A stretch of DNA of 64,000 nucleotides from Escherichia coli (GTDB lineage: Bacteria > Pseudomonadota > Gammaproteobacteria > Enterobacterales > Enterobacteriaceae): the NCBI RefSeq assembly GCF_030013205.1, contig NZ_CP122648.1, one strand, 5' to 3'. Below, piece after piece: positions 31,110-41,436 of this stretch. The notes under the pieces are model-generated. The model was not told the DNA's origin. It made no database searches and was given only the letters and a program-made list of their open reading frames with translations. A program made the position numbers and the translations under genes. Positions within the stretch are counted from its first letter, which is position 1. Each line of letters opens with the position of its first letter.

Positions 31110-32095
31110 GTAGCAGGGCAAGATTACGAAAGCCCGCTCCCCGCAAGGACTGACGTCAGGTAGTTTCTGTCCATGGCTGCCCTTTCCATTCAAACGTGAA
31201 ATCAATAAGTTCATCAGGGACATCGCAAACAATATGAAGACGGATTTCTTCTCTGCCGTGACTTTTTTCACTAATTGCGTAACTGTCATGCTCTGGATTA
31301 TTTAATTCTTTCAGTGGGAATTTTTCCTCAAAGGCTTTATTAAGCCGCCCCTGATTTCCTTTTACAGCGAATAAATAATCACCGCCCTGTTTTTGTATCT
31401 TCTCTGCGATATCTTTCTGGCAACCCATCGCATCAGTTGTGATAATTTTTCCTTTAATATCCAGCATGTTAAGAAGTTCAGGGATAGCTGTGATCTCATT
31501 GGATTTCTTATCCGTCCTGATCTGTCCGATGACAAGACTGTGCATTGTTGAGAACGCACTAATGACATGAATCGCTCCCCTGCGGCGACTCTTGTCATAA
31601 GAATGCCGGAGCGTTTTTCCATCAATTGCAATAACGTCTTTATCATCTGAAGAATGGCAGTCACGCATCCAGTTAATAAAGCACTCGTGAAATTTTGAAG
31701 GACTGATACAGGATACAACTCTGGCGATGGTATCGTGAACAGGAATACCATTTTAAAAATCACCATATTGTTTTAAAAAATCGAGATGTGTTTCCCCAAA
31801 ATCCTCTATATCTTCCCAACCGTCTGCACAAGAAATAACGGCACAAATAGTCAACAGTAGAATATCCGACAATTTATGTTCCACTTTCCTGGCATGTCTG
31901 TAATCGGAAGTAATAGAAATATGTTCCATCAATTTTTTAAGTTCCATTTTGTTCTCCTTAATTATGTAAGGAGTATTTGATCATGTATAAGCAATAAAAA
32001 AGAGCTTCAGGTAATGAGGAATATCTCAATTTTTAAACATAAAATGCGAATTGTTTAGTACAAAAAAGCAGCGTTACGTGATCTTTCCCTGGTGA
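31110..32095 (-). mobile_element. H-repeat (ISAs1-family) element copy 1, degenerate
   Basis: terminal sequences shared with copy 2 (gcagggNaagattacgaaagcccgc at one end, gatctttccc at the other); internal deletion of about 385 bp plus a TAA nonsense codon. Confidence 0.8.
31156..31947 (-). pseudogene. H-repeat-associated (ISAs1-type) transposase, disrupted
   Basis: ORF track fragments 31753..31947 and 31156..31668 same frame; ...YGDF then TAA where copy 2 has GAA; C-terminus replaced after FTFEWKG by deletion. Confidence 0.8.
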
Positions 32096-32545: not shown

Positions 32546-32995
32546 CTATAGTTTAATGACCTCGCCAAGCTTACCCCCCTCATCGGCATAAAAAGCACTC
32601 AAATACAGATCACCCTTATTTTCTTTTGTAAACTCAAATTCCTCTATTAGAGAGTAATGTTCATATGTAGAGCGATAGGTTAAAACCACAACATTATGAT
32701 TAATTACATTACTCGCCAATAAGTTTATTTTATTTAATCTTCCAAACACCTGTTTTTTTTCTTTCATTATCGTTATAAAAACATCTTCCGATGTTGCTTT
32801 TTTAAATTCACTGCTTGTGTCAGAGTAGATTTTGTCCACTTCATTCTGATTGTATAGTTTTTGAATGATAACAACTTTATCCTGCGCAATTTTTCTAATA
32901 TCAGCATCATTCTTTATTACATTATGACTAATGTCTTTCCCCAAAAACATAAAAACCACTACTGCTACAATAACAATACTCACTTTTATTTTCAT
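32546..32995 (-). CDS. candidate immunity protein for orphan Rhs tip 2; N-terminal signal peptide or membrane anchor
   Basis: 149 aa, MKIKVSIVIVAVVVFMFLG hydrophobic N-terminus; AT-rich; start 4 bp from upstream toxin stop. Confidence 0.55.
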   Translation of the reverse strand: MKIKVSIVIVAVVVFMFLGKDISHNVIKNDADIRKIAQDKVVIIQKLYNQNEVDKIYSDTSSEFKKATSEDVFITIMKEKKQVFGRLNKINLLASNVINHNVVVLTYRSTYEHYSLIEEFEFTKENKGDLYLSAFYADEGGKLGEVIKL

Positions 32996-32998
32996 AAA

Positions 32999-33780
32999 TT
33001 AATATCCTGCCAATTGTGATAAACACCATAAACTTTGCGAACAGGTAAGTTCGCCAACAAAACCACCAAATCCGGGACCAATACTCACTGTGCCTGAATT
33101 TTTTCCGTCTGCATCCCTAACCCCTGCAATGGAATATTTTTTCAAATAACCACCTGTAGATATATAACCTTTAGTAAGATACTCCCCCGGAGAGATTTTT
33201 GCTTGCGATGCTGTACCTGACAAAGAAATACCGATTGCAGAACCAACACCATTATGTTCACACAAAGTATAATACATACAAACATCCAGATTAGCTGGAG
33301 CTCTGTCATTCCCCCCAACTGTTGCTCCCACAGCAAAACTAGCCCCTGTAAATTCGTCACCATTAAAACTTATATCAATAGATCCTGAACCAGGGAAAGG
33401 AGTAGTATAAATTTTAGAAGTCACATCCGAAGGAGCGTTATTATTATACATAGAGTTATTCATAAATTCGCCCCAATTGCTATATAATCCCAAAGCATCT
33501 GTGTATGCAACAGGATTCAACGGATACTGATAAAAATTCCATCCCCACTTCAGCCCAATCGGATCATGAGTGATATACCGCCCCTGCAGCGGGTCATAAT
33601 AGCGGTGGCGGTTGTAATACAGGCCGGACTCCTCATCATACTGCTGCCCCGGCAGGCGGACAAGCTGCTGCAGCTGATGCGGGTTCTCTTCATTCAGCAG
33701 GTTGCCCCACTCATCGTATTCTGCGCACCATTCTGTTGCCCCTTCCGTGCTGATAAGCGCCAGCGGCAGGTTATTCGGTT
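32999..33780 (-). CDS. orphan Rhs C-terminal tip 2 (core-end remnant plus glycine-rich toxin domain), no ATG/GTG start
   Basis: minus-strand frame open from about 33780 to stop at 32999; encodes ...[73 protein letters not shown]...[13 protein letters not shown] then a divergent 160-aa domain; ORF track lists the TTG-initiated part 32999..33520. Confidence 0.75.
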
Positions 33781-33893
33781 TGCGTCGTTGAGTTCACTAC
33801 ACTAAAACTCCGTGCCCATATAACCCAAGTCGGAGGCATGCCTTCCTCTGGTTCGTTCCATCTAAAATGTCTATACATAACATGGTTATTCAA

Positions 33894-34286
33894 TTATTTT
33901 TCTTTGAATTTATTCTCAATCCAGCTGTCTTTATACCTGATGAAAATTTGACACTCACCAATATTATCAATGCCTCCAGAATTTGTATTTGGAATTTGTC
34001 CAACTGCAACTATAGTTGATTCAAAATATTCAACATTGACATTATCTGTAATTATTGAAATTATATAATCATCTGGAATAGAGCCATTAGGAGTTATATT
34101 GAAGAAACTAACACCTGAAAATACCAAATAACCATCTTCTAAGTCTTCATTATCATAAAAATTCCATTCTGTTGTACCATAGGCTATCCTTGAGATTAAA
34201 TTAACCTGAATTCTAATTTGTTTACTCCATAAATCAAATTCAATTTTTTTTATTGCTCGATCACCAAGATATATTCTATCAAACAT
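33894..34286 (-). CDS. candidate immunity protein for orphan Rhs tip 1 (cytoplasmic)
   Basis: 130 aa, no signal peptide, AT-rich, starts 14 bp after upstream toxin stop. Confidence 0.55.
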   Translation of the reverse strand: MFDRIYLGDRAIKKIEFDLWSKQIRIQVNLISRIAYGTTEWNFYDNEDLEDGYLVFSGVSFFNITPNGSIPDDYIISIITDNVNVEYFESTIVAVGQIPNTNSGGIDNIGECQIFIRYKDSWIENKFKEK

Positions 34287-34300
34287 ATTATCCCCCTATT

Positions 34301-35203
34301 CTAAAAATACTCAGGCATTCCGCACATTATATCAGCCTCATCTTGATTGCTTCCCGTTGACATTTCAACATACATAGCATAATAACATTGTCCAAACGTT
34401 CCCTCTCTACATGATCTAAGTGTAAACATATGTAAAACAGAACTAAAAAAGCTTAGTGTACCGAGTGATCTAATACCGATATGTGCGGCACTACTATTCC
34501 ATGGTACAACGCGACCATTAACATCAAGGGATGGACCTTGGCCTTTCATACCGCTACCTGTTCCTGGTAAATGTGCATGTGCATGTGGTGTTGAATTGTT
34601 TGCATGCCCTATTGGATTAAGCCTATAAGCATTTGAATTATTCTGATAAAGAGTGTGAGTATCTGCACTTCCTGGATTACTGGGGGGATACGGGATTGTT
34701 CTGCCACCTACCGGTTCAACCATAATATTGCCTTTAGAATCACCTATAAACCTACCAACAGGTTGTTGAGTTATAGGATCAATAGTACAGGATTGACTTA
34801 CAGGTTTTTGTCTGGGAGAAGGTAATGATAATAGATCTAATCCCAAAGGGTCTATATACTGAACCGGATTCAACGGATACTGATAAAAATTCCATCCCCC
34901 CTTCAGTCCAATCGGATCCTGAGTGATATACCGCCCCTGCAGCGGGTCATAATAGCGGTGGCGGTTGTAATAGAGGCCGGACTCCTCATCATACTGCTGA
35001 CCCGGCAGGCGGATGAGCTGCTGCAGTTGATGCGGGTTCTCTTCATTCAGCAGGTTGCCCCACTCATCGTATTCTGCGCACCATTCTGTTGCCCCTTCCG
35101 TGCTGATAAGCGCCAGCGGCAGGCCGCGATGGTCGCAGTGGTACAGGTGGATTTTTCGCGCCGGCGTGTACACCGGGTCCATCTGGTTTTGCATCTGCGT
35201 CAC
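34301..35203 (-). CDS. orphan Rhs C-terminal tip 1 (core-end remnant plus unclassified toxin domain)
   Basis: 300 aa; first about 115 residues near-identical to rhsC core end up to [13 protein letters not shown], then unique 185 aa; begins with GTG exactly at H-repeat copy 2 boundary. Confidence 0.75.
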
Positions 35204-35204
35204 C

Positions 35205-36495
35205 GCAGGGAAAGATTACGAAAGCCCGCTCCCAGCAAGGACTGACGCCAGATAGTTTCTGTCCATGGCTGCTTTTCGCATCTTACGTCTTAACCCTGCC
35301 TTGAATACCTTATCATTCGTCAAAATATTAATAGCAATGTGCCGTATCCCTGAAAATAATTCTGCTGCATTTCCTCTTCTTATTTTGCAGTCGTCTTCAT
35401 TCATTACCACGTCCAGACGCCAGTGCAGCTTATTCTCCACGTGCCAGTGGTTTCGGATTGCTGTGGCGAACTTTTCTGCGGTTAAATCAGCAGAACTGAT
35501 ATAATATCTGACCGTCATTTCTGGCTCTTTCTTTTGTTCTGCTATTATTGACCGAAAGGAGACTGCCACGCATAATTTCTTCATTCCTTTCCATTCAAAC
35601 GTGAAATCAATAAGTTCATCAGGGACATCGCAAACAATGTGAAGACGGATTTCTTCTTTGCCGTGACTCTTTTCACTTATTTCGTAACTGTCATGCTTTG
35701 GATTATTTAATTCTTTCAGCGGAAATTTTCCCTCAAAGGCTTTATTTAGTCGTCCCTGATTTCCTTTTACAGCGAATACATAATCACCGCCCTGTTTTTG
35801 TATCTTCTCTGCAATATCTTTCTGGCAACCCATCGCATCAGTTGTGATGATTTTTCCTTTAATATCCAACATGTTAAGAAGTTCAGGGATAGCTGTGATT
35901 TCATTGGATTTCTCATCCGTCCTGATCTGTCCGATGACCAGACTGTGCATTGTTGAGAACGCACTAATGACATGAATCGCTCCCCTGCGGCGACTCTTGT
36001 CATAAGAATGCCGGAGCGTTTTTCCATCAATTGCAATAACGTCTTTATCATCTGAAGAATGGCAGTCACGCATCCAGTTAATAAAGCACTCGTGAAATTT
36101 TGCAGGACTGATACAGGATACAACTCTGGCAATGGTATCGTGAACAGGAATACCATTTTCAAAATCACCATATTGCTTCAAAAAATCGAGATGTGTTTCC
36201 CCAAAATCCTCTATATCTTCCCAGCATTCTGCACCAGAAATAACGGCACAAATAGTCAACAGTAGAATATCCGACAATTTATGTTCCACTTTCCAGGCTT
36301 GTCTTTAATCGAGGATAATAGAAATATGTTCCATCAATTTTTTAAGTTCCATTTTGTTCTACTTAATTATGTAAGGAGTATTTGATCATGTATACGCAAT
36401 AAAAAACAGCTTCAGGTAATGAGGAATATCTCAATTTTTAAACATAAAATGCGAATTACTTAGTACAAAAAAGCAGCGTTACGTGATCTTTCCCT
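35205..36495 (-). mobile_element. H-repeat (ISAs1-family) element copy 2
   Basis: about 1.3 kb; same terminal sequences as copy 1; same orientation as copy 1. Confidence 0.8.
35216..36360 (-). pseudogene. H-repeat-associated transposase with in-frame TAA at codon 15 (remaining ORF 357 aa)
   Basis: [19 protein letters not shown], then ORF track 35216..36289 from a GTG; N-terminal segment carries several substitutions relative to copy 1. Confidence 0.7.
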
Positions 36496-36692
36496 GGGGC
36501 TTTAACTTCCCTTTATTCATAAACTCATGGATATGGTGATCAACGGTGGTCTGATGGAGGCGCAGAGCCTGAGTAATCATGACTGAATTTCAGCCTTCAG
36601 AAGCCAGAAAAATGGCTTTAATACAATCGCAGCCCCGCTTTTCACAACATTATGCTTATAATATGAAAAATATCTTGCCTTGCATCTTTGTG

Positions 36693-37171
36693 CCTACGGC
36701 ATTGGATGATCTTTCCCTAACCTTATAGTTTCTTTTAGCCTTTCAAGCCTTAGCAATTCAACCTCGGCTTTAATATAGCCATGTGAGGCAGCCATTTTCA
36801 GCCAATTAATTGCATTATCTAAATTATAATATTTTAAATAGGAATCATCCTCCTCTGAGGATAGAATCATAGCATAATTATATTGCGCTATGATATTTCC
36901 TTGAGATGCAGACCTTGCCAGATATTTAATTTGCTTGGGTATATTAAAGCAAACATATGTATAATATTGATGTAATCGATATGACGCATCACCATCCCCG
37001 CCCTCAGATTTAATATCAAGTTCATATCTTTGATTTTTACTTAAATTAAACGATTCAGATGTTGAGCTTATTTCAATGTTATGGAGCTTAATAGGGGGGG
37101 GATTTCACCTCCATATGAACAACAAGAGAAAAAGAAAACATTTGCAATCAGAATAAATAAAAAGCACTTCA
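36693..37171 (-). pseudogene. frameshifted small lipoprotein with Sel1-like repeats; candidate rhsC cognate immunity gene
   Basis: ATG about 14 bp after rhsC stop; MKCFLFILIANVFFFSCCSYGGEI then an 8-nt homopolymer (G8 on + strand, about 37093-37100) shifts frame; with 9 nt the ORF reads about 155 aa. Confidence 0.6.
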
Positions 37172-37185
37172 TGTTGCCACCTTTG

Positions 37186-40100
37186 TTATTTTATATCACT
37201 TGGTCTCATAACTTTGCCAGGAGTGGAAGAAATGGGTTGACCTGAAGGTCCAAACGTTATCCAGCGGCCCATATTATTACCAGTTATGACATTATTACTT
37301 GTGTCAATTGCCGAGATATTATCCGTAAGTCCTGTTTGGATCGTATTAAAAAGAGGAGTATTATTATCCCACGCCATCCATACTTGCCATTGTGTATCAG
37401 CTCCAGTGACATTTGCATGAAGTGCTCTGGCTAACTTGCTGGCAAAAGATTTATTTCCCTCTCTGGCTGTACCACATGAGAATAACCAAACAGACATTCC
37501 CTTTTTATAGCGTGGATTAGCTCTGATTCTCTTGGCTAATCCCTCAGCGGTCTCATAATTTCCACTTTCATCTGTAATAAAACCAGGATATCCATGTCCT
37601 CCAATAGTAAAAACGCCAGGAATATTTATTTTATCTGTTGCAGCATGCAGTGATACATTTCTGCGTAGACTCTCATCATAGAAATTCATATCAGCTAATC
37701 CAAAAGGGTCTATATACTGAACCGGATTTAACGGGTACTGATAAAAATTCCATCCCCCCTTCTGCCCAATCGGATCCTGAGTGATATACCGCCCCTGCAG
37801 CGGGTCATAATAGCGGTGGCGGTTGTAATAGAGGCCGGACTCCTCATCATACTGCTGACCCGGCAGGCGGATGAGCTGCTGCAGCTGGTGCGGGTTCTCT
37901 TCATTCAGCAGGTTGCCCCATTCATCGTATTCTGCGCACCATTCTGTTGCCCCTTCCGTGCTGATAAGCGCCAGCGGCAGGCCGCGATGGTCGCAGTGGT
38001 ACAGGTGGATTTTTCGCGCCGGCGTGTACACCGGGTCTATCTGGTTTTGCATCTGCTCCACTGTCAGGCCGCACGATGCCAGCCAGCGGCGGCTTTCCTC
38101 ACTCACCCGGTCAGCCAGGATTTCACTTTCCAGCCGATCGAGCATCTGTACCAGCACCGGCGGGAACACCACACTGCCACCGTCTTCACCGCCGGACTGC
38201 TGAAGGGCATCCGCTAGGCTGCGGCGCTGCGTTTTCGCCAGCTCACCGGTGGCGGTTTCGACCCTGATGAGTGGCGTGAAGCTCCCCGGCTGATAAACCG
38301 TCTGGATGCGGGTTCTGTCGTTCTGTATTGTGGTCAGCCGGTCGCCGTCCCAGCCGTACCAGGTCACTTCCGGTTTCCGTGACAGCGACATCCAGCCCGT
38401 CAGGTCCCGTTCACGCCGCCACACCCGTTTTGCCACCCTGCGGCCCAGCGGGTCGTAAAGATAGCGGCTTTCAACCAGCGGCTCTGCATATTGTGTCCGC
38501 GTGTAGTGCACCAGCCGGTGCCGGCTGTCGTAATGGTACCGGTGAGTCCGCTCATCATCCGTGCGGATAACCCCTTCCGGGATGAGGTCGGTTTTCTCCG
38601 TCAGCCTGCCGTGACGGTCATACCGGTAAAGATAGTGCGCGTCACGGGCGATACGGTTATCCGGCCACATGCTGAGGGTGCTGTCCGGGTGCAGCTCCGG
38701 GTCGGGCAGGCGGTTGCCCGCCGGGTCCGTGGCATACGGGATGCGGATATCCAGATTCGCTGCGGTGGTGTGGACGCCGGTCAGCCTGCCGGTGTCGCTG
38801 TAGCTGTAACTCCGGGTCTGGCGCGGGCTGCTGATGCGGATGAGTTCGCCGTTGTCGTTCCAGGTGTAATCGCGGTCATACTGCAGGCTGTTCAGGTGCT
38901 GGCTCTGTAACTGCCCGGCAGGGGTGTAAGCGGTGGTGAGTTCATAACGGCCGAAGCTGCGCAGCGTTTCCCGGTGCAGGCGGTCGCGGGTGTACTCCAC
39001 CAGCGGTGTGTCGCCGAGTTTCATGCCTGACAGCCAGCCGCTGCCGTAGGTCAGCCATTCCACGGCGGGCAGGCTGTCCGGTATACAGCGGTTCGCCAGT
39101 CCCTGCGTGTTGTAAGCGTGTCTGGTTTCATGCTGCCAGAGCAGTGCTTCCGTCTGCGGATGATGCACCGTCTGGCGCTCACCGGTCAGGCGGCCTTTCT
39201 CATCATACCCGTAATGCACCGTCACCCGGTGGCCTTCGCTGAGATGGCTGATGCCTGTCAGCCAGCCGCGTTCGTCATACTGCCACTGCTCTGCAGGTTC
39301 ACCCTTCACGGTGCGGTGAGTGAGGCGGTCTGCTTCGTCATAGTGCCAGTGGGTGACCAGCCCCTCATCCTCGCTGCGGATAAGTTTACCGGTCAGGTCG
39401 TGGTGATAACGCTGTGTGCGGCCGTCAAAGCCGGTTTCCTGTATCAGCCGGTCGAGTACATCGTAACGGAAGGTGGTGTGGCTGCCGTTTTCACTGGTCA
39501 GGCGGATGACCCGTCCGGCAGCATCGTATTCCATACTGCGCGTCAGACCGCCCTGTGTGGTACGGATGGCCTTTCCCCACGCATCGTACTGTGTCCCGTT
39601 TCTGCTGCCGTCCGGGGCAATGACGGCGGTCAGGTCACCGGCGGCGTTGTATTCATACCGCGTTTCATGGCCCTGCGTGTCTTTCACCGCAATTAACTGT
39701 CCACGGCTGTCGTATGCGCGGTACTGACTCAGCCCTTCCTCGCGGTGCACCGCCGTCACCTGACCAAAACGGTCATGGTCATAACGGGTTACATAACCGG
39801 AACAGTCAGTGACGGTCAGCAACTGACCGTAACGGCTCCATGTCATGGTTTTCCGGCTGCCGGTGGCATCTTCCGTTGCGCAGGGTAAGTCACTGTGTGG
39901 ATTATCATAACGGTAGCGGGTGATATCGCCGTTGTGTGCGGTTTCCTGAATCAGACGGCCGGATTCATCATATTTGCGGCGCAACTCCAGCCCGTCAGTC
40001 CCGGTGGCTGACGTTAACTGGTTGTGGTGGTTATAGTAAAATGCCGATGCCCTGCCATCCGGTGTGGTGATGCGCGTGATGAGTCCCGTCACCACATCCG

Positions 40101-41436
40101 GGCTGTACTCAGTCGTCCGGCCTGCGGCATCCGTCTGTGCCTTAAGCCCACCCACCGCGTCAAACTGACTCTGCGTGACGCTGCCGTCCGCGTGTTCCTT
40201 TTTCACCACCCGCTTCAGCCCGCCTTCGCCCTGCGTGTGCAGCACTTCACGGCGGTCCAGACTGTCGGTGATGGTGATGCGGTCTTTCTCATACTGATAC
40301 GTGTAGCTTAAGCCTGCCGGGTTTAGCTGTTCTGTCACCCGCCCGTCGCTGTCGTAACGGTAACGGATTTCCGGCCGGCCCGTGTGACGGTGCGCCACCA
40401 TCCGGCCCCGGTATTTATCATCGTAAGTAAAGCTGCGCACCTGTGTATTGCTGCGGTCATACACCGCCGCCAGTTCGCCGCGTGGCGTCCAGCCATAGCG
40501 CACCAGCGGCGCGGCAGGTAAATTCTCCGGGTATTCCGGGTCGTGCGTCAGCCACACGGCAGACAGACGGATGCCGTTGTCCCGGCCATATTCGGTGTAA
40601 CCCGGCAGGGTATCAGGAAAAGCGGACGGTTCCGTCCCGCCGGAAATGGCCTGCTGCCGGGCCTCTTCTGCCCGCAGCGCCTGCGTGGTCAGTACCAGCC
40701 GGAAGTGACGCCCGGCACCATCCGTCACGCCGGTGATTTCGCCGCTGAATTCGCCGCCAGCCTCACGGTGGAACGTCTGTGTGCGCCCGAAGCGGTCCAC
40801 CAGCCCGGTCAGTACCCGGTACGGCGGCAGCGGCGCAGACAGCACCTCATCCGCCTCCGGCACCCGCTCACACCAGCCGAGTACCCACCACGGCCCCTGC
40901 GGACTGTTCGTCGCCAGATAACGATGCGGACTCAGGCGAAGCTCTTCCGGCAGCGCCTGCCAGAGTGCGGCCAGCCGGTGACCTTCATCCAGTTTCGCCA
41001 CGCCGCCGCGCACCAGCCAGAGTGACTCGCTGCGGCTGTAACCGTCCTCACCGGGAAACAGGTGCTCAAAATACAGGCTTCTGCCGCCGTTATCACTGAG
41101 TATCAGTGTGTTATCGCGCAGCTGTAAGCGGATATCCGCAGGCATTTTCCAGCCGGGGCCGAGGCTCCCCACCGGCGCGGGCGTTTTTGTCCGGTAACTG
41201 CTGTAGGTGCGGGAGAGGATGAACGGCAGCGGGCCGGGCAGGGCAAGGTCGGTTTCGCCGGGAAGGACCTTCGCACCGAGCAGCGGATTGACCGGATGGC
41301 CGGACGTCACCCCGCCGGGGCACACCGAACAGGCCACGCCGGTGGGGGCACCAATACGTACCCCGGCTGAACCCTGAACAATGCTACCGCCATACTGCGT
41401 CATGTCGCCCTGACGCGCCGCCGGTTTTCCGCTCAT
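37186..41436 (-). CDS. rhsC: Rhs family protein, rhsC-type: N-terminal PAAR-like region, YD-repeat core, DPxGL boundary, variable C-terminal toxin domain
   Basis: 1416 aa; [30 protein letters not shown]-terminus, YD repeats, [13 protein letters not shown] then unique 170-aa tip. Confidence 0.95.
37701..38057 (-). repeat. rhs core 3'-end segment repeated at 34843-35203 and about 33515-33770
   Basis: near-identical nucleotide stretches read directly in all three places. Confidence 0.85.

Follow-up and report, generated by a model that had tools for sequence, protein, structure and literature searches.

How can an Rhs toxin tip be of use to a cell when so little is left beside it of the protein that would deliver it? 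A stretch of 64,000 nucleotides of Escherichia coli DNA (RefSeq assembly GCF_030013205.1, contig NZ_CP122648.1; hereafter the window) raises this question, because its positions 33,894 to 35,203 hold an open reading frame (ORF) that resembles the end of an Rhs protein, abutting an H-repeat element on one side and a small ORF on the other. Orphan Rhs tips are a known enterobacterial way to store and swap contact-dependent toxins. A reading made from the letters of the window and its ORFs (hereafter the sequence-only reading) had proposed a toxin domain on an orphan tip, paired with a gene for a cytoplasmic immunity protein, the tip perhaps being driven by a promoter in the H-repeat. Our analysis shows that the locus is a typical orphan Rhs module, and so of an ordinary type. 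With a probability that we put at about 65%, it is a toxin/immunity cassette that serves as a displaced spare tip of the rhsC locus, in which the toxin is a distant relative of the DNase PT7 and the neighbouring DUF6258 protein is its immunity protein.

An orphan Rhs module downstream of rhsC

Over 33700..35300 we compared the window with the chromosome of a porcine E. coli O139:H1 strain, to which it is 100% identical, and the RefSeq labels quoted below are those of its equivalent genes. That chromosome identifies the locus as the rhsC site, flanked by kdp/ybfA and ybgA/phrB, and the minus strand carries every gene of the region (Table 1). The main Rhs protein matches NCBIfam RHS_core at its N-terminus (E 2.9e-95). 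In G+C content the rhsC core stands at 62%, whereas the tail of the orphan tip drops to 40% and the small ORF that follows to 28%.

The GTG start of the orphan lies where the sequence-only reading had placed it, at the end of H-repeat copy 2, and the strand, which that reading did not state, is minus. Homology of copy 2 to copy 1 stops at 35205, two bases ahead of the GTG, and Rhs homology is found in the orphan only from 35198 onward. From there 35198..34837 repeats rhsC 38056..37695, and the frame matches Pfam RHS (E 4.8e-15); the reproduced core end that had been noticed is thus real, although it comprises 122 residues and not about 115. The repeat closes with PxxxxDPxGL, the motif at which the Rhs core ends and at which Rhs/Tc proteins release the toxin by autoproteolysis, and 336 nt of core are kept upstream of it. 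The motif has been cited as a conserved landmark (PMC7043789). The sequence then diverges into a tail of 178 aa, rather than the 185 first counted, with the His-rich stretch and the C-terminal Cys residues already described (five Cys, four of them near the C-terminus). Beside the H-repeat end we found neither a shell nor a PAAR-like N-terminus in the orphan, and no Shine-Dalgarno sequence stands ahead of its GTG. Having no shell, no PAAR-like N-terminus and no convincing start signal, the orphan is not deliverable as it stands.

The locus has the parts of an orphan module: a core-end fragment with PxxxxDPxGL and a divergent tip, no N-terminus, shell or start signal of its own, a position downstream of rhsC in the same orientation, and an immunity gene next to it. 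The orphan rhs-CT/rhsI of Salmonella Typhimurium LT2 (PMC3967940, PMC7043789) likewise combines a core-end fragment with genes for toxin and immunity, lies downstream of the main rhs in the same orientation, likewise lacks start and export signals, and has a core-end repeat that permits in-frame fusion with the main gene. The two differ in their toxin and immunity families, and in that the E. coli main gene and orphan have an ISAs1/H-repeat element between them, which sets the 5' end of the orphan; recombination at the E. coli locus is known from simulation only.

In that simulation, a crossover between rhsC and the orphan was in frame and gave an open frame of 1425 codons, whose product is 96.8% identical to the Rhs of E. 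coli O55:H7. The two 362-nt repeats are direct and in register, and being offset by 2858 nt they leave the reading frames aligned too. Recombination of main with orphan rhs arises and is selected in Salmonella (Koskiniemi et al., PMC3967940), and this precedent, together with the in-frame crossover, favours the view that the orphan is a silent reserve.

A toxin domain of many carriers and its DUF6258 partner

The sequence-only reading could assign neither the toxin domain nor its neighbour. Neither Pfam, NCBIfam nor the PDB sequences contain a match to the tail, which turned out to be a remote relative of PT7 (see below). The 130-aa ORF, which lies 14 nt downstream and is AT-rich and without a signal peptide as had been noted, matches Pfam DUF6258 (PF19772) with E 6.9e-26 over residues 4-89; the RefSeq name of its equivalent is DUF6258 family protein, and a hydrophobic N-terminus was not found. 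Pfam assigns no function to DUF6258 and our literature search on it found no paper, whereas the present analysis links the family to one toxin domain and to the PIM7 fold.

A word-indexed search returned 22 relatives of the tail, and a profile search of 1.84 billion cluster representatives returned 216 matches, 110 of them below 1e-30. Together with the DUF6258 match, these numbers argue that the features of the two ORFs are not due to chance. In nearly all relatives the domain, about 105 aa long, occupies the extreme C-terminus of proteins of up to 2880 aa, whose other parts comprise RHS repeats, SpvB/TcdB (Tc-type), PT-HINT, DUF637 (CdiA-like) and, in one case, DUF4157 of eCIS (extracellular contractile injection system) type. 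Such a placement at the very end of diverse carriers is the signature of a polymorphic-toxin tip.

The partner gene follows the toxin with the same regularity. In Rahnella, Diaphorobacter and a metagenome contig the toxin has a DUF6258 gene immediately behind it, and in the reverse test the DUF6258 genes of Leptospira, Variovorax and Salmonella were each directly preceded by a protein ending in the toxin domain (E ~1e-50). We then scanned one genome per species, 33 loci from Proteobacteria, Bacillota, Bacteroidota, Chloroflexi, Acidobacteria, TM6 and Actinobacteria, one of which left no downstream room to judge. A DUF6258 ORF was present at 28 loci and stood directly downstream on the same strand at 27 of the 33, a pairing that spans all of these phyla except Actinobacteria. 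Among the exceptions, a Bacillota metagenome-assembled genome (L004 4468..4752) has after the toxin domain a 94-aa ORF without a Pfam match, possibly a different immunity family, and the eCIS-type DUF4157 fusion (L006) is followed by no immunity gene.

Most members of the family are shorter than the E. coli tail. Among the aligned proteins the 57-aa extension is present in E. coli, Rahnella and one metagenome protein and partly in Diaphorobacter, and the Salmonella Rhs also continues for about 55 aa beyond the domain. With its conserved Cys (SC...QC[FY]C...C), the extension is seen overall in E. coli, Salmonella, Rahnella and a few metagenome proteins. Most members lack the extension and end at AHWP; DUF6258 partners accompany both forms.

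Both proteins resemble the chains of the PT7/PIM7 complex

An AlphaFold2 model of the tail, built without templates, has a predicted local distance difference test score (pLDDT) of 80.8; residues 26-89 form a beta core, and four helices stand at the C-terminus. The template-free models of the toxin and of the immunity protein both rank the PT7/PIM7 crystal structure (8OWU) first, and Foldseek too puts PT7 first, with a probability of 1.00. 8OWU was released in 2024, presumably after the structure cut-off of these AlphaFold2 weights. The homology of the pair is argued most strongly by the fact that two independent models led to the two chains of a single complex: the tail is modelled with the PT7 fold, and the DUF6258 protein with the PIM7 fold in a gene directly downstream.

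Sequence comparison detects the relationship for the toxin alone. When the toxin family was aligned as a profile with a profile of 13 Bacillus PT7 sequences, the probability was 93.3% (E 2.8e-7), over only about 56 of the 105 core residues. Pairwise search does not detect the similarity; phmmer with the tail found nothing among PDB sequences at E ≤ 10, and the family profile reached 8owu only at E 0.18. The tail thus falls short of the similarity by which the PT7 family was defined (DIAMOND E ≤ 0.001 and at least 80% coverage; Nachmias et al.), and we regard it as a superfamily relative rather than a strict PT7 family member. PIM7 itself has no Pfam match.

PT7 is a non-specific endo-DNase of a new fold that is not an RNase and does not cleave tRNA; EDTA abolishes its activity, a Mg ion was modelled in its pocket, D37A, H47A and H73A each abolish its toxicity (Table S11), and PIM7 occludes the pocket (10.1101/2021.10.19.465003). 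When PT7 is aligned with the tail, H47 falls on H87, H73 on H119 and D37 on N74, so that both histidines are kept, and PT7(Bc) of Bacillus cereus shares with the tail the motifs H..R.[DN]P, H.H, LD.NGN.V and S..AH. In both systems the toxin is a C-terminal domain of polymorphic toxins with the immunity gene directly downstream. PT7 differs from the present domain in its size (78 aa against about 105 aa) and in its carriers, as it is free-standing or fused to LXG for the type VII secretion system and found mainly in Firmicutes, whereas the domain here rides on Rhs, Tc-type, HINT, CdiA-like and eCIS proteins. Unlike PT7, the latter also has two insertions with extra invariant His, an Asn in place of Asp37 and, in enterobacteria, the helical Cys-containing tail. 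The toxin PT6 (Nachmias et al.; Moraxella canis WP_078255899.1), which is also fused to DUF4157/eCIS and occurs in many phyla, is probably distinct, to judge by its description: it has 85 aa, acts in the periplasm only and has no immunity partner, while the domain here is longer and has a cytoplasmic one.

These likenesses suggest that the tail is a metal-dependent nuclease acting in the cytoplasm, which fits an immunity protein without a signal peptide. A 2026 report of a nuclease Rhs effector of Salmonella Tennessee was considered as a possible relative, as Salmonella has close DUF6258 genes, and was ruled out because that effector has an HNHc domain.

The tail on full-length Rhs proteins and the immunity gene alone

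Contrary to what had been thought, the tail is not unique to this locus: with the immunity gene, and at ≥ 98.5% identity, it is found in 56 of 5426 complete E. coli genomes. The exact H-repeat/tip junction is present in 17 genomes, all of them swine isolates with a 100% identical arrangement. Elsewhere the tail ends full-length Rhs proteins, namely one of 1425 aa at the rhsA site of O55:H7 RM12579, with a DUF6258 gene after it, a frameshifted one at the rhsB site of strain D8, and one of 1414 aa in Salmonella enterica. The tail of the orphan differs from that of the D8 Rhs by one nucleotide and by no synonymous change; this nucleotide turns a Cys of the O55:H7 and D8 copies into Tyr (C275Y, codon 34379..34381). 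The immunity gene of the orphan differs from the copies beside full-length Rhs genes by G58D, G105D and D120H, all non-synonymous with no synonymous change, and by a 1-nt indel with which three residues are lost from the C-terminus.

In about 790 of the 5426 genomes, which include BLR(DE3), other B-lineage strains and O157:H7, the immunity gene stands alone with about 58 nt of the toxin 3' end. The two such remnants that we examined, those of BLR(DE3) and O157:H7, are frameshifted because the A8 run at immunity codons 12-15, intact in the window, is shortened to A7, which possibly reflects decay or a slippage-prone switch. The rhsC locus of E. coli B, as seen in BLR(DE3), occupies the same site between kdp/ybfA and ybgA/phrB and also has a main rhs, downstream core-end fragments, H-repeats (ISEc1, ybfD) and ybfC; its tips are different, however, and of the present cassette it holds only the frameshifted immunity remnant and no toxin.

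Expression signals and neighbouring features

We scanned 33400..37400 for promoter and terminator consensus sequences and compared the result with shuffled sequence. The 16 promoter-like sites did not exceed the 12.8 ± 4.1 found in shuffles, and none lay at the outward end of the H-repeat, so that this sequence scan does not bear out the proposed outward promoter and lends no support to H-repeat-driven expression. At about 89 nt upstream of PxxxxDPxGL, where Salmonella has an internal promoter, no convincing match was seen when the site was judged by eye without the Salmonella promoter sequence. Searching the literature for H-repeat, ISAs1 and Rhs brought up nothing of use.

H-repeat copy 1 (31113..32092) is broken. 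At 35199..35218 on the minus strand the transposase and the orphan tip share one frame, with only the transposase stop and five codons (SFPAV) between them. A second, shorter orphan lies just downstream (32546..33770, minus strand), in which the Rhs core end is repeated at 33770..33482 with 94-96% identity and the frame is broken; it continues with a 173-aa ORF with a Gly/Ser-rich tail (32999..33520) and a 149-aa ORF (32546..32995), whose RefSeq equivalent is a DUF3887 protein, and neither ORF has an NCBIfam match. In strain W13-16 this stretch is interrupted by IS1; the copy in the window is uninterrupted there. Neither Pfam nor NCBIfam matches the tip of the main rhsC (last ~170 aa). Between this tip and the H-repeat (36498..37701 region, minus strand) lie 690 nt in which the only ORFs are fragments, 34, 45 and 58 aa long, one lipoprotein-signal-like and one Sel1-like, and RefSeq also annotates an IS630 remnant there; the immunity gene of the main rhsC toxin may be broken.

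Table 1 Features of the orphan tip and its surroundings. Positions are those of the window; conservation is given for 166 members of the toxin family.
Feature	Positions	Strand	Basis
Immunity gene, 130 aa, 28% GC, Pfam DUF6258, all-beta, no signal peptide	33894..34286	-	
A8 run, immunity codons 12-15, intact in the window	34244..34251	-	Alignment
14-nt spacer with ribosome-binding site AGGGGGA, TAGAATAGGGGGATAATATG	34287..34300	-	Sequence
Orphan Rhs tip ORF, 300 aa, GTG at junction	34301..35203	-	ORF list; RefSeq: Rhs pseudogene missing N-terminus
57-aa helical Cys-containing C-terminal extension	34304..34474	-	Alignment; four helices in AlphaFold2 model, pLDDT ~67-76
PT7-like toxin core, tail residues 17-121; conserved H61 (86%), R72 (95%), N74 (Asn 85%, Asp 10%), H78 (99%), H85 (99%), H87 (100%), H89 (93%), H119 (99%)	34475..34789	-	
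PxxxxDPxGL motif codons, end of Rhs core	34838..34867	-	Sequence
H-repeat/ISAs1-family element, copy 2	35205..36497	-	95.7% match to copy 1 at 31181..32092 + 31113..31180
ISAs1 transposase ORF, pseudogene with internal stop	35216..36289	-	RefSeq annotation
Main full-length Rhs gene (rhsC locus), 1416 aa, own different C-terminal tip	37186..41436	-	ORF list; RefSeq equivalent "RHS element core protein"
Core-end block of main rhsC, duplicated in orphan, recombination substrate	37695..38056	-	97.5% over 362 nt to 34837..35198

Discussion

The proposal of a toxin domain on an orphan tip and of a cytoplasmic immunity protein encoded beside it has held up on four grounds: the core end with PxxxxDPxGL downstream of rhsC, the same tail on full-length Rhs proteins, the pairing with DUF6258 at 27 of 33 loci, and the likeness of both proteins to PT7 and PIM7. 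In the explanation that we prefer, the cassette is most likely a silent reserve. Homologous recombination over the 362-nt core repeat would graft the tip onto rhsC and yield a deliverable Rhs of 1425 aa, which would probably leave the cell by the type VI secretion system; until then the toxin would stay silent. The conserved His cluster with Asn or Asp would most likely hold a divalent metal and cut DNA in the cytoplasm of the target cell, and the small beta protein of the DUF6258 family would most likely bind the toxin and cover its active site as PIM7 does. The immunity gene, which is probably expressed, may also protect the cell against E. coli or Salmonella that deploy this toxin on a full-length Rhs.

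Several points weigh against this explanation. The alignment behind the toxin model is shallow, with 21 sequences. Between DUF6258 and PIM7 no relationship in sequence came to light, either when profiles of 4 and 40 sequences were searched against PDB or by hhalign against PIM7, so that, as far as the models tell, their link is one of fold only; and purified PIM7 failed to block mutant PT7 in vitro (10.1101/2021.10.19.465003). Where PT7 has its essential Asp37, this protein and 85% of the toxin family have Asn, and H78 and H85, invariant and absent from PT7, sit on two loop insertions, so that the metal or the substrate could differ. The same cassette might then work by another chemistry, with the PT7-like fold and the His cluster serving, for example, RNA cleavage or another metal-dependent hydrolysis, perhaps with Zn or Ni and not Mg. 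The Cys-containing extension of the enterobacterial branch and the partial reach of the profile alignment to PT7 would suit this possibility. On the other side, all three residues essential to PT7 map to conserved positions, with Asp itself at position 74 in 10% of the family; the immunity protein has the PIM7 fold as well, which suggests a conserved toxin surface; and the PT7 mutants had no RNase activity (10.1101/2021.10.19.465003). Overall we consider another chemistry unlikely. The Asn at the metal site, the two added His and the conserved Cys-bearing helical tail of enterobacteria also lead to a more far-reaching view, in which the toxin family is a functionally shifted offshoot of the PT7 fold with another metal, substrate or way of entry, DUF6258 is a widespread immunity family of many phyla whose sequence can no longer be recognised as related to PIM7, and the orphan perhaps acts inside the cell like a toxin/antitoxin pair; this we hold to be quite unlikely.

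The other objections concern the state of the orphan. RefSeq calls its ORF a pseudogene, and Cys275, which is altered in the orphan alone, is conserved in the full-length copies, in Rahnella and in a metagenome homologue, so that the Tyr might inactivate it. The frameshifts of the BLR(DE3) and O157:H7 remnants show that retention for protection is not general, and we rejected the idea that immunity genes are kept for protection as a rule. It may be, then, that the toxin fragment is a decaying, non-functional relic left by tip replacement and H-repeat rearrangement, in which at most the immunity gene matters. The missing Shine-Dalgarno sequence, the absence of promoter signals above chance, the broken transposase gene next to the tip, the shorter Rhs remnant just downstream and the ~790 genomes with the immunity gene only would all be expected of a relic. 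Its 300 codons are entirely open, however, the tail has not drifted at synonymous sites from that of D8, the immunity gene is intact behind a strong ribosome-binding site, the arrangement is identical in the 17 swine isolates, and comparable orphans of Salmonella were shown to be recoverable (PMC3967940), and on balance we judge decay unlikely. Salmonella Typhimurium offers a further model, as a promoter lies 89 nt upstream of the PxxxxDPxGL-coding sequence in both main and orphan rhs, the toxic product starts at CTG, and toxin and immunity protein bind each other (Starsta et al., PMC7043789). By analogy the orphan, which retains the 336 nt of core ahead of the motif, could be an internal type II toxin/antitoxin module with a core-end promoter and a non-ATG start that modulates growth of the producer. 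The corresponding place here has no consensus-like promoter and a DNase would be a harsh toxin for such a module, which makes this improbable. The idea that read-out from ISAs1 makes the junction GTG the start of a free 300-aa tip protein, as the sequence-only reading had suggested, is in our view very improbable: the GTG is only two bases beyond the element, the transposase and tip frames coincide across the junction, and no terminator-like site was found on the minus strand from 36289 to 35203, but the last 600 nt of the element have no promoter-like site on that strand, no Shine-Dalgarno sequence precedes the GTG, the transposase gene is broken, and a free tip without shell and PAAR has no export route.

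For E. coli, a reserve cassette at rhsC means that deletion of 2858 nt, or the corresponding duplication, would equip rhsC with a toxin already deployed by other E. coli and by Salmonella, the present case being in pig-pathogenic E. coli; in laboratory strains of the B lineage and in O157:H7 the copy of the same immunity gene is frameshifted. For the family, a C-terminal toxin domain that had no name, and of which there are about 216 cluster representatives in at least seven phyla, can now be recognised, and DUF6258 gains a probable function as immunity to this one toxin domain. The PT7 fold would thereby reach beyond the LXG toxins of Gram-positive bacteria to carriers of the Rhs, Tc and eCIS types, and the modest value of the finding is that a toxin domain without a name and a DUF are tied to a DNase/immunity complex of solved structure.

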